Source: a virus. From it: a stretch of 64,000 nucleotides of DNA. The notes beneath the pieces were generated by a model, which was given only the letters and a program-made list of their open reading frames with translations, was not told the DNA's origin and searched no databases. The DNA lies in IMG/VR virus record IMGVR_UViG_3300008114_000042, positions 1 to 64,000 of that record; one strand, given 5' to 3'. Each line of letters opens with the position of its first letter. The stretch's first letter is position 1. Of the stretch, positions 699 to 59,519 are shown piece by piece. The translations under genes were made by a program, and so were the position numbers.

Positions 699-1931
699 GT
701 GTCTCAATACAAGACATATGTGATTCCTGCTATGAATACCCCGGCAGACTTGCCAAAGGCCATTCGTGAGTTTGCTGCCTCCATTACCAATATCTATACA
801 GGCAAACTGTATAGTGACTACCAGATGACCCCAGACGATGTTGATGCGGTGTTCATCGTAGAAAGTGGAGCAACGGTACACATCACTACTCCTCCCGCAG
901 GCCCCGGAGCATTCCCCGTAGGTGGATATTTCGGGGTATACGTGAAGGAAGGATACGCCAAGATCGTCCCCGGCGCAGGGCAGGCAGTACAGAAGGTAAA
1001 CATCCAAGAAGTACGAGCAGGAGAGTTGGTCTATGTCTATTGCCTTGATACCACAACATTCTATGTGAATAGGGATACTGACGAAGCAGAAATCCCTGAT
1101 GGTGTGTCTTTTGCTACCGGCCTGCACTTCCTTGCTGATGGAAGGCTGCATTGGAGTGTGTTTCATGGAAGCCTTGGTGCTCCTACCGGATACGAGATAA
1201 GGGATCGCAATGGAAATCCAACCACTCTTCCTGTTGCCATTGACAGGGCAAATAGAATAGGCACTATTAACGCAGCATCCTCACAACCACAAACCGACTA
1301 CACCTTCAAGGTGCGCTCCATCCATGGCAGCATCTACGGTCCATGGTCGAATGTCGTAAGCACCCAATACAATGCACCAAGCAACCCCATTCTTGTTGAT
1401 GCCAACTCGCTTCACACAGGCAATGGTCAGTTCACGGTAAGGACTGCTGATCCTGCTGATGCATCTAAGTTTACCGTCACGGCAACGGTACTGGGAGGGG
1501 GAGGAAATGCATCGGTGGCGGCGGGTAATGGAGGGCAGATTATTACTTGCTCTGGCTCAACAACACAGACCATCAAACTTGAAGCATACGCAGGCTCCTT
1601 GAAGTTCTGGGAGCATATAGTCCAAAGGCAGCCACACACTCATAGAAGCGAGAACCACCGATACCCGTGCGGCTCCCACCAGTGCAACTGCTCGTCGTCG
1701 TGGGCTGCGTGTGGGTGTGGTGGTTGTGATAGGTACCCGGCTCCGAACTCGCAGTCGTGGGGTCAGTGTGGTTGCGGTCCTGCGTGGGGCATCCCCGACG
1801 GCACGATGTGCTGGTATGGTGGTCTAATCACTACTTGTGGGTCATGTACTTCCTACTGTGACAACTGGGTCAGCGTCCTTAACGATGTAGCAGGTTGGCA
1901 GAATAGGCACGGAGAATGGTATACAGGATGA
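699..1931 (+). CDS. putative tail fibre/receptor-binding protein with an FN3-like domain and a Cys-rich C-terminal tip
   Basis: FN3-like YTFKVRSIHGSIYGPWSNVV; 12 Cys in the last ~100 aa. Confidence 0.55.
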   Translation: MSQYKTYVIPAMNTPADLPKAIREFAASITNIYTGKLYSDYQMTPDDVDAVFIVESGATVHITTPPAGPGAFPVGGYFGVYVKEGYAKIVPGAGQAVQKVNIQEVRAGELVYVYCLDTTTFYVNRDTDEAEIPDGVSFATGLHFLADGRLHWSVFHGSLGAPTGYEIRDRNGNPTTLPVAIDRANRIGTINAASSQPQTDYTFKVRSIHGSIYGPWSNVVSTQYNAPSNPILVDANSLHTGNGQFTVRTADPADASKFTVTATVLGGGGNASVAAGNGGQIITCSGSTTQTIKLEAYAGSLKFWEHIVQRQPHTHRSENHRYPCGSHQCNCSSSWAACGCGGCDRYPAPNSQSWGQCGCGPAWGIPDGTMCWYGGLITTCGSCTSYCDNWVSVLNDVAGWQNRHGEWYTG

Positions 1932-6395: not shown

Positions 6396-6435
6396 ACAAA
6401 AACAGCGGTGTGTTCAAGTGTGGTATAATGTCTCT

Positions 6436-58480: not shown

Positions 58481-58564
58481 AGGGGAATATCGGCGCTGTC
58501 TTATAAACAGTGGATAATAATGCCGTAGCGGTCCAGTTGGGTTCAATTCCCATTTCCCCTACCA
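58481..58564 (+). tRNA. non-canonical D-arm-less tRNA-like RNA, anticodon TAT (Ile)
   Basis: AGGGGAA/TTCCCCT + ACCA; GCTGT-CTTATAA-ACAGT; TGGG-TTCAATT-CCCA; 7-nt D region, 25-nt variable region. Confidence 0.6.
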
Positions 58565-58638: not shown

Positions 58639-58649
58639 CAAAAATATTG

Positions 58650-58879: not shown

Positions 58880-58906
58880 CAAAAGATTCCAAAGTGTGGT
58901 ATAAGC

Positions 58907-58977
58907 GCTCCCTTAAGTTAATAGTAAACTGGTAGTTTTACACACTACTCACGGCGGGGCGGTACCGTCAGGGAGTA
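58907..58977 (+). tRNA. tRNA-Val(TAC), atypical T-loop
   Basis: GCTCCCT/AGGGAGT, AGTT/AACT, GTAGT-TTTACAC-ACTAC; T-loop GGCGGTA. Confidence 0.7.
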
Positions 58978-58984
58978 CGCACAA

Positions 58985-59051
58985 TGCTCTAGTTGGTACG
59001 GCGGGGTCCTCATAAGTCCCCTAGCCTTAGGTTCGAATCCTGATAGAGCAA
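58985..59051 (+). tRNA. D-arm-less tRNA-like RNA, anticodon CAT (Met or Ile2)
   Basis: TGCTCTA/TAGAGCA; GGGGTC-CTCATAA-GTCCCC; TTAGG-TTCGAAT-CCTGA; 11-nt D region. Confidence 0.6.
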
Positions 59052-59096
59052 CGGTTTCCAAGTAGCGAGCGCTTTGGAAGTGTGGTATAATGGAGT

Positions 59097-59519
59097 ATGA
59101 AAATTTGTGGAACCTGTAAAGAAGAAAAGCCAATTAGCGAGTTCTCCCTCAAAAAGGGAAAGCCCCAGTACAACTGTAAAGAATGTCATTCAAAGTATAG
59201 AAAAGCACACTACGAAAACAATAAGCAAAAATACATAGACAAGGCTGCTAAGAACAAGAAAGCATATGCCAGAGAGTATTACGACTGGCTAAGTGGCAAA
59301 TGTTGCGCTGACTGCGGGACGACAGACATAAGAGTCTTGGAACAGGACCATCTCAAAGATAAAAAGTTTAATATCTCTTTGCTAATAGGGAGGGTGAGAC
59401 TCTCTACGATGATGGAAGAATTGAATAAGTGTGAAATCGTGTGCGCCAACTGCCATATCATCCGTACCGGAGAAAGGGCGGGGTGGCTGAAACAAGAATA
59501 CTACGCGAATATAGTTTAG
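59097..59519 (+). CDS. HNH endonuclease within the tRNA cluster
   Basis: CGTC..CKEC, CADCG..DIRVLEQDH, KCEIVCANCH. Confidence 0.8.
   Translation: MKICGTCKEEKPISEFSLKKGKPQYNCKECHSKYRKAHYENNKQKYIDKAAKNKKAYAREYYDWLSGKCCADCGTTDIRVLEQDHLKDKKFNISLLIGRVRLSTMMEELNKCEIVCANCHIIRTGERAGWLKQEYYANIV

Follow-up and report, generated by a model that had tools for sequence, protein, structure and literature searches.

A candidate tRNA gene with anticodon CAU and no D-arm hairpin in a phage with a probable actinobacterial host

Can a phage gene that has lost the D-arm hairpin still be a tRNA gene, and what would such an RNA be for? The locus that raises this question encodes a 67-nt RNA with anticodon CAU (hereafter, the CAU RNA) at positions 58985-59051 (+) of the window, which is the whole 64-kb stretch of DNA analyzed here and makes up the first 64 kb of its virus record. 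The record is complete at 98,864 bp, carries direct terminal repeats and has 50% G+C. An actinobacterial host is probable, because the portal protein shares 44-46% identity with its counterparts in Streptomyces phages of Stanwilliamsviridae and the phage encodes a WhiB-like regulator. The genome carries two tRNA clusters, with 12 tRNAs recognized by default ARAGORN, none of which has a CAU anticodon. The CAU RNA lies in the first cluster (58.48-60.39 kb), on the same strand (+) as its tRNAs, together with tRNA-Arg(UCU), Trp, Gly(UCC), Ser(GCU), Glu(CUC) and Leu(CAA). An HNH gene and a number of odd tRNA-like sequences belong to this cluster too, and the CAU RNA is the sole CAU tRNA encoded by the phage. 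The tRNA set as a whole tracks heavily used codons, with ATA making up 21% of isoleucine codons, GTA 32% of valine, GGA 28% of glycine and AGA 16% of arginine codons.

Structurally, the RNA is laid out as TGCTCTA, GTTGGTACGGC, GGGGTC CTCATAA GTCCCC, TAGCC, TTAGG TTCGAAT CCTGA, TAGAGCA and a final A, which together make 67 nt (Table 1). It contains the canonical tRNA features of a 7-bp acceptor stem with discriminator, a 7-nt anticodon loop in which U33 and R37 are present, and a T-loop on a 5-bp T stem, while the D-arm stem of the canonical RF00005 cloverleaf (positions 10-13/22-25, 3-4 bp) is absent. The acceptor and anticodon stems are just 11 nt apart, which leaves no room for a D hairpin. 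The first-pass annotation, made from the letters of the window, had described a D-arm-less tRNA-like RNA with anticodon CAU at this site, and sequence, fold and homologue (see below) all agree with it; the 67-nt length, 7-bp acceptor, retained TGG, six-position anticodon stem with one T.T and canonical T-loop that it listed are all present. Its 11-nt unpaired D region, however, would be truly unpaired over the first 8 nt only (GUUGGUAC), which form no pairs in the minimum-free-energy fold of either homologue, whereas the last three (GGC) are predicted to pair with GCC in the variable region. For this second pairing the minimum-free-energy and centroid folds (RNAfold) agree in both homologues, and across a UA bulge it would extend the anticodon arm to 9 pairs, flush with the T stem. 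The GGC and GCC bases are identical in the two homologues, and thus this helix carries no covariation.

Table 1 Coordinates of the CAU RNA, its parts and associated features (window positions unless a locus is named).
Feature	Position	Strand	Remarks
Acceptor stem, 5' strand UGCUCUA	58985..58991	+	7/7 Watson-Crick with 59044-59050; positions 4, 5 and 7 covary in L026
Connector in place of D arm, GUUGGUAC	58992..58999	+	8 nt; looks like a D-loop remnant, GG retained
GGC, orphan 3' strand of former D stem	59000..59002	+	Predicted partner 59024-59026
Anticodon stem, 5' strand GGGGUC	59003..59008	+	Partner 59016-59021; U.U at 59007/59017
Anticodon loop CUCAUAA	59009..59015	+	Anticodon CAU at 59011-59013; ARAGORN -ps and -mt: Met(cat)
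Anticodon stem, 3' strand GUCCCC	59016..59021	+	Fold and comparison with L026
UA bulge between anticodon stem and GCC strand	59022..59023	+	Fold; same in L026
GCC closing the variable region	59024..59026	+	Predicted partner of 59000-59002
T arm, stem UUAGG/CCUGA, loop UUCGAAU	59027..59043	+	5 pairs, one U.G
Acceptor stem, 3' strand UAGAGCA	59044..59050	+	Pairs with 58985..58991
Discriminator A73	59051	+	CCA not encoded (CGG next); in L026, A then C
UAU RNA	58481..58564	+	7-bp acceptor stem, encoded ACCA
Val-like cloverleaf, anticodon UAC	58907..58978	+	ARAGORN -mt; ends 6 nt before the CAU RNA
HNH homing-endonuclease gene	59097..59519	+	PHROG 2255, E = 3e-30; inside the tRNA cluster, adjoins the CAU RNA
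Promoter-like motif AAGTGTGGTATAA	58892..58904	+	80 nt upstream of the CAU RNA; -10 hexamer here TATAAG
Motif copies	6416, 19545, 35300, 41254, 49822, 51262, 58645, 58892, 59078, 60160	+	Four in the tRNA cluster
Domain-only RNAs	L050:3255-3336; L057:1079-1157; L060:1353-1431; L042:3265-3342; L101:3130-3208		About 35 more

The CAU RNA largely escapes standard tRNA detection. Default ARAGORN makes no call for it, the Rfam tRNA model matches 58978-59051 at 21.2 bits, under its gathering score of 29, and the mitochondrial mode of ARAGORN, which produces much noise in this genome (18 additional calls over 99 kb), reports a "D-loop tRNA-Met(cat)" at 58985-59052. We therefore rely on a strict descriptor, which demands a 7-bp acceptor followed by a 4-14-nt connector; a 5-bp anticodon stem, in which one mismatch is tolerated, under a 7-nt loop that has U33 and R37; a 4-6-nt variable region; and a T arm that joins a 5-bp stem to a T[T/G]CRANN loop. 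Over both strands of the 98,864-bp genome it matches here and nowhere else, and 100 Markov shuffles give no match. Descriptor, shuffles and homologue together rule out a chance match or false positive. A reading as an attP site or tRNA fragment is ruled out as well, since both acceptor strands are present and covary.

Evidence that the layout is maintained comes from a homologue in a second virus. A degenerate anticodon-arm pattern recovered 33 loci from JGI metagenome contigs, one of which, L026, is related to the CAU RNA beyond the pattern. This 1,941-bp contig (~62% G+C) carries the element at 1440-1506 (-), with the layout TGCAGTG, GTTAGTACGGC, GGGGGC CTCATAA GCCCCC, TAGCC, CAAGG TGCAAAT CCTTG, CGCTGCA, A, and the Rfam tRNA model gives no match on it at E<=10. 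Like the window copy, it is 67 nt long and again lacks a D hairpin; the first-pass annotation had set its reading against relatives with a complete D arm, and the sole relative found is D-armless too. The two copies differ at 16 of 67 positions (24%), 13 of them in stems, and yet all 21 predicted pairs are kept in L026, every one of them standard. Five pairs show double compensatory changes, three in the acceptor and two in the T stem (CAAGG/CCUUG in L026, with two pairs changed on both sides); one acceptor pair passes from U-A in the window to U.G, and the U.U of the window's anticodon stem is G-C in L026, which has no mismatch anywhere. When the 3' partners are slid by 1-3 columns, pairing falls from 97.6% to 36-57%, and 16 random substitutions, placed outside the pattern-fixed columns only, keep a mean of 14 pairs, with 21 pairs reached at P ~2e-5 (200,000 simulations). 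Compensation of all helices at 24% divergence calls for selection on the fold subsequent to the loss of the D-stem strand; as judged from this comparison of two sequences, the D-armless structure is what selection kept. Identity of the anticodon loop in L026 is imposed by the search pattern, and is thus no independent evidence for conservation of CAU. Conservation is higher in the unpaired parts than in the stems (connector 7/8, variable region 5/5), which suggests tertiary or protein contacts. In particular, the connector change from G to A at 58995 (GG to AG in L026) occurs alongside a T-loop change from UUCGAAU to UGCAAAU, a pairing of changes that, as a single event, would fit a retained contact between D-loop remnant and T-loop.

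Judged by its proteins and G+C, the virus behind L026 is quite different from the window's phage. It encodes a scaffold protein and an N4-gp56-type capsid protein, the latter 45-47% identical to those of Streptomyces podophages of Beephvirinae, and its closest relatives are the viruses whose capsids (proteins P0001-P0015) are 74-100% identical to its own. The element sits between an upstream ORF on one side and the scaffold and capsid genes on the other, and Streptomyces phage Manuel carries 19 tRNA genes at the same position, where gene 14 is followed by the scaffold and capsid genes.

A 78-82-nt RNA that corresponds to the tRNA-like domain of tmRNA only (Table 1) takes this slot, upstream of the scaffold gene, in about 40 IMG/VR relatives of L026. 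These domain-only RNAs (GGGGGTG...CACCTCCACC) have G3:U70, a T arm and a short hairpin, with no tag reading frame and no pseudoknots, and reach 48 bits with Rfam RF00023, whose threshold is 47, in an alignment that skips 292 internal positions of the model; they could be mini-tmRNAs or alanine-accepting tRNA mimics. In addition, Manuel (L037:2226-2294) and loci L150-L154 encode a 68-72-nt tRNA-Arg(CCU) whose acceptor and anticodon stems are separated by only 14 nt (GTGNNGGACGCRGT). This short tRNA-Arg(CCU) is conserved in 29 Beephvirinae phage records, with a covarying anticodon stem, and is annotated as tRNA-Arg in most of them and unannotated in the FlowerPower group and Stella.

Beyond L026, the searches brought up no further copy of the CAU RNA. 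IMG/VR DNA patterns built on the 3' half, on the anticodon arm, on the D remnant with anticodon and variable region, on the variable region with T arm, and on the specific spacing returned nothing related; IMG/VR loci around neighboring or related proteins held no further copy; a GTDB pattern scan gave two chance matches only; and blastn of either homologue against 50,697 GenBank phage records gave nothing. Model R1 found no copy in the rest of the phage genome, in its closest IMG/VR relative or in 80 loci of L026-like phages, and none in Streptomyces phages Wofford, Phredrick, Faust and Manuel, where its short matches are fragments of normal tRNAs broken off at the D arm. In the three distantly related cultured phages that were examined (44-46% portal identity), all CAU tRNAs are canonical. 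Full-text searches of the literature gave no report of D-armless tRNAs in phages, and found the form described only from metazoan mitochondria and synthetic work in E. coli. As a side observation, the closest IMG/VR relative, a 76-kb contig, has an ARAGORN tmRNA (L001:13265-13567; tag peptide ANTQTAFALAA) inside its tRNA region, which also holds 15 canonical tRNAs, a normal tRNA-Met included.

Within the window, the CAU RNA is framed by further unusual elements. Immediately upstream lies the Val(UAC)-like RNA, whose minimum-free-energy fold is a perfect cloverleaf (RNAfold, z = -2.0), with a D-loop AAUAGUA that lacks GG and a T-loop GGCGGUA, and which is missed by default ARAGORN and Rfam; it would read GUA, the codon that accounts for nearly a third of the phage's valine (32%, above). 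At the start of the cluster, the UAU RNA has CGGC just before its anticodon arm and GCCG plus a D-loop-like UAGCGGU after it, such that its D-arm parts seem to be wrapped round the anticodon arm. The first-pass annotation had suggested that the CAU and UAU RNAs may be a matched pair for AUA/AUG decoding or initiation, or decoys for Met/Ile-tRNA nucleases. In both RNAs, an orphan (C)GGC strand is predicted to pair with (G)CC(G) 3' of the anticodon arm; blastn found no relative of the UAU RNA in the phage collection. Downstream, the HNH gene has a start that looks leaderless and a 3' end that overlaps tRNA-Gly(UCC) by 15 nt. No nuclease, RNA-repair or toxin gene was identified beside the CAU RNA, the neighbor being this HNH homing endonuclease.

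Transcriptionally, a AAGTGTGGTATAA(T) motif occurs 10 times in the window, on the + strand in every case, where chance would give 1.08. At 6416, 35300 and 59078, an ATG begins 5-6 nt after TATAAT, which suggests that the motif is an extended -10 promoter driving leaderless mRNAs. The copy nearest upstream of the CAU RNA, at 58892, overlaps or abuts the 5' start of the Val(UAC)-like cloverleaf. Because of this overlap, and because its hexamer is TATAAG, the CAU RNA may instead be transcribed from the better copy at 58645.

What kind of tRNA could this be? From the structure, conservation and genomic setting described above, we infer that the CAU RNA would be expressed, charged and used in decoding, along the following lines. 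The layout is read most simply as a Met-type tRNA that has lost U8, N9 and the D stem's 5' strand (nucleotides 8-13). In Manuel, the canonical tRNA-Met has the acceptor strand TGCTCGT followed by TA-GTGG-AGAGGTG-CCAC-G and shares the acceptor 5'-UGCUC with the CAU RNA, and alignment to it suggests an origin by that loss, leaving GUUGGUA and CGGC behind. The D-loop remnant GUUGGUA, with its GG, would then act as connector and would probably keep its docking contact with the canonical T-loop; GGC, left over from the D stem as its 3' strand, would have gained GCC in the variable region as its new partner; and the anticodon arm would have become a helix of ~9 bp in place of the usual stack of D stem and anticodon stem. 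The RNA would be transcribed together with the first tRNA cluster, matured by host RNase P, 3' trimming and the CCA-adding enzyme, charged by host MetRS through its CAU anticodon, A73, G2:C71 and C3:G70, and would decode AUG. The phage genome contains no TilS gene (no PF01171 match), no CCA-adding enzyme gene and no peptide deformylase gene, and thus maturation and charging would depend on the host.

The bases that both homologues share favor methionine identity, for an elongator and an initiator alike. Invariant between them are U1:A72, G2:C71, C3:G70, A73 and the loop CUCAUAA (the loop being fixed by the search pattern). Of these, G2:C71, C3:G70 and A73 are the bases of initiator tRNA-fMet and are also found in elongator tRNA-Met, with the fit to methionine judged here by E. 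coli identity rules. Unlike initiators, the CAU RNA has no mismatch at 1:72, where both homologues have a weak Watson-Crick U1:A72, and the initiator run of three G:C pairs with G29-G31 (29:41, 30:40, 31:39) is absent; the window copy has G-C, U.U and C-G at these positions and L026 has G-C, G-C and C-G. Two oddities count against a tRNA gene in the window, namely the U.U of its anticodon stem and a U1 where G1 is usual.

Taken together, we consider it an evenly balanced judgment that this is a real, selectively maintained phage tRNA(CAU) gene without a D-arm hairpin. More tentatively, and at somewhat below that level of confidence, we posit that it is a natural, working, non-cloverleaf Met-tRNA of the bacterial cytoplasm, used by unmodified MetRS, EF-Tu (or IF2) and ribosome, and part of a wider, undescribed class of phage tRNAs in which a helix wrapped round the anticodon arm replaces the D hairpin. 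By analogy, decoding by such an RNA is plausible, because an artificial D-armless tRNA is taken unadapted by E. coli HisRS, EF-Tu and ribosome, with degradation by PNPase as its limitation (PMC11551756). The unusual core might serve as an escape from a host factor that acts on normal tRNA-Met.

An unlikely alternative, though one that merits serious attention, is that the CAU RNA is a folded and maintained tRNA mimic without any use in decoding, acting either as a decoy or sponge that draws off a host nuclease or modification enzyme directed at tRNAs, or as RNase P/Z "punctuation" that processes or stabilizes neighboring transcripts. Structural conservation by itself is no proof of decoding, and anticodon conservation, as noted, came with the search pattern. 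Moreover, in L026 the CAU RNA is the sole tRNA-like gene in view, amid structural genes, and the domain-only RNAs that occupy the same slot in the ~40 related phage contigs have no D stem and are incapable of decoding. A mimic of this kind is harder to reconcile with an anticodon loop that is fully canonical (C32 U33 CAU A37 A38), with acceptor bases in line with MetRS/Met-tRNA rules, and with the setting in the window's phage, where the RNA has ordinary tRNA genes around it and provides the CAU anticodon that they lack, with the homing endonuclease as its neighbor rather than any identified nuclease, RNA-repair or toxin gene.

Alternatively, the CAU RNA could belong to the tRNA-Ile2 type, with C34 converted to lysidine by host TilS, and read AUA as isoleucine in support of the UAU RNA; we judge this improbable. 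In its favor, ATA makes up 21% of the phage's isoleucine codons, whereas it is a rare codon in high-GC actinobacteria, and the cluster already contains the UAU RNA. However, with that RNA in place AUA would have two servers, and the complete phage genome has no TilS gene of its own. The acceptor identity pairs of TilS are 4:69 and 5:68 in E. coli and 3:70 and 4:69 in B. cenocepacia (PMC11947777), and the CAU RNA homologues differ at 4:69 and 5:68 (U:A/C:G versus A:U/G:C), which counts weakly against lysidine formation given that these rules come from E. coli and B. cenocepacia rather than from actinobacteria.

A decaying, functionless tRNA-Met pseudogene, with the shortened core as a deletion scar left perhaps by homing-endonuclease activity, is in our estimation very improbable. 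The adjoining HNH gene, the sub-threshold behavior in tRNA finders, the U.U in the anticodon stem and the rarity in databases speak for decay, but the truncated layout is kept in a very different phage at 24% divergence with all helices compensated, and L026 has neither a mismatch nor a neighboring HNH gene. Finally, ARAGORN -ps, at its lowered threshold, reads 58979-59050 as a normal tRNA-Met cloverleaf whose acceptor is weak (two A.A) and whose D stem has 2-3 bp. The alignment of the sub-threshold Rfam match reads it likewise, but this cloverleaf is so far-fetched that we reject it, because its acceptor collapses to 1/7 pairs in L026 while the D-armless acceptor keeps 7/7 in both RNAs, and RNAfold favors the D-armless fold even with the upstream bases supplied.

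Returning to the reading as a D-armless phage Met-tRNA, how does it compare with known systems? Human mt-tRNASer(GCU) resembles the CAU RNA in having a 7-bp acceptor, no D hairpin and a retained T arm (PMC9427863). Its short replacement stretch is taken up in part by a lengthened anticodon stem, and the GGC/GCC helix predicted for the CAU RNA would do likewise. Unlike metazoan mt-tRNA-Ser(AGY/GCU), the CAU RNA is encoded by a bacterial phage rather than an organelle, has anticodon CAU rather than GCU and shows no serine identity. Human mt-tRNASer(GCU) has a remodelled T-loop and no tertiary core (PMC9427863), whereas the CAU RNA has a canonical T-loop (UUCGAAU) and has kept the connector GG, which makes an elbow contact plausible. 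There is no sign of a dedicated synthetase or EF-Tu for the CAU RNA. A second known system is mini HisT (PMC11551756), a synthetic tRNA from which the D arm was removed and which works with unmodified bacterial synthetase, EF-Tu and ribosome. Mini HisT was made by removing bases 11-25 and inserting a 4-nt connector, whereas the CAU RNA is natural and conserved, and its 11-nt stretch preserves both the remnant of the D-loop and the D stem's 3' strand.

Among bacterial RNAs, the canonical CAU tRNAs (tRNA-Met, tRNA-fMet and tRNA-Ile2) share CUCAUAA, A73, G2:C71, C3:G70 and the T arm with the CAU RNA, the nearest sequenced one being the Manuel tRNA-Met; the CAU RNA departs from them in having no D stem, no U8/N9, a length of 67 nt and a sub-threshold Rfam score. 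The tRNA-like domain of tmRNA (RF00023) is similar in its 7-bp acceptor and in a D-loop analogue without a D stem, as well as in a long helix that closes just before a T arm with CCUAG(A/C)C, and the domain-only RNAs occupy the slot that the element has in L026. Unlike the tmRNA domain, the CAU RNA has C3:G70 instead of G3:U70, a true anticodon loop and no match to Rfam tmRNA.

D-armless tRNAs are thus known as a kind, and what would be new here, as read from sequence comparison, is a natural and conserved phage tRNA(CAU) of D-armless form. According to a 2024 paper, all known bacterial tRNAs are cloverleaf-shaped, and directed evolution was needed for the use of D-armless tRNAs in E. coli (PMC11551756). 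If our reading is true, this fold would already be in use in nature with bacterial translation machinery, and would provide a compact natural scaffold for tRNA engineering. It would also mean that part of the phage tRNA repertoire is systematically missed by tRNA finders and Rfam, and would raise the question of why phages prefer such cores, be it for stability, nuclease evasion or altered decoding.
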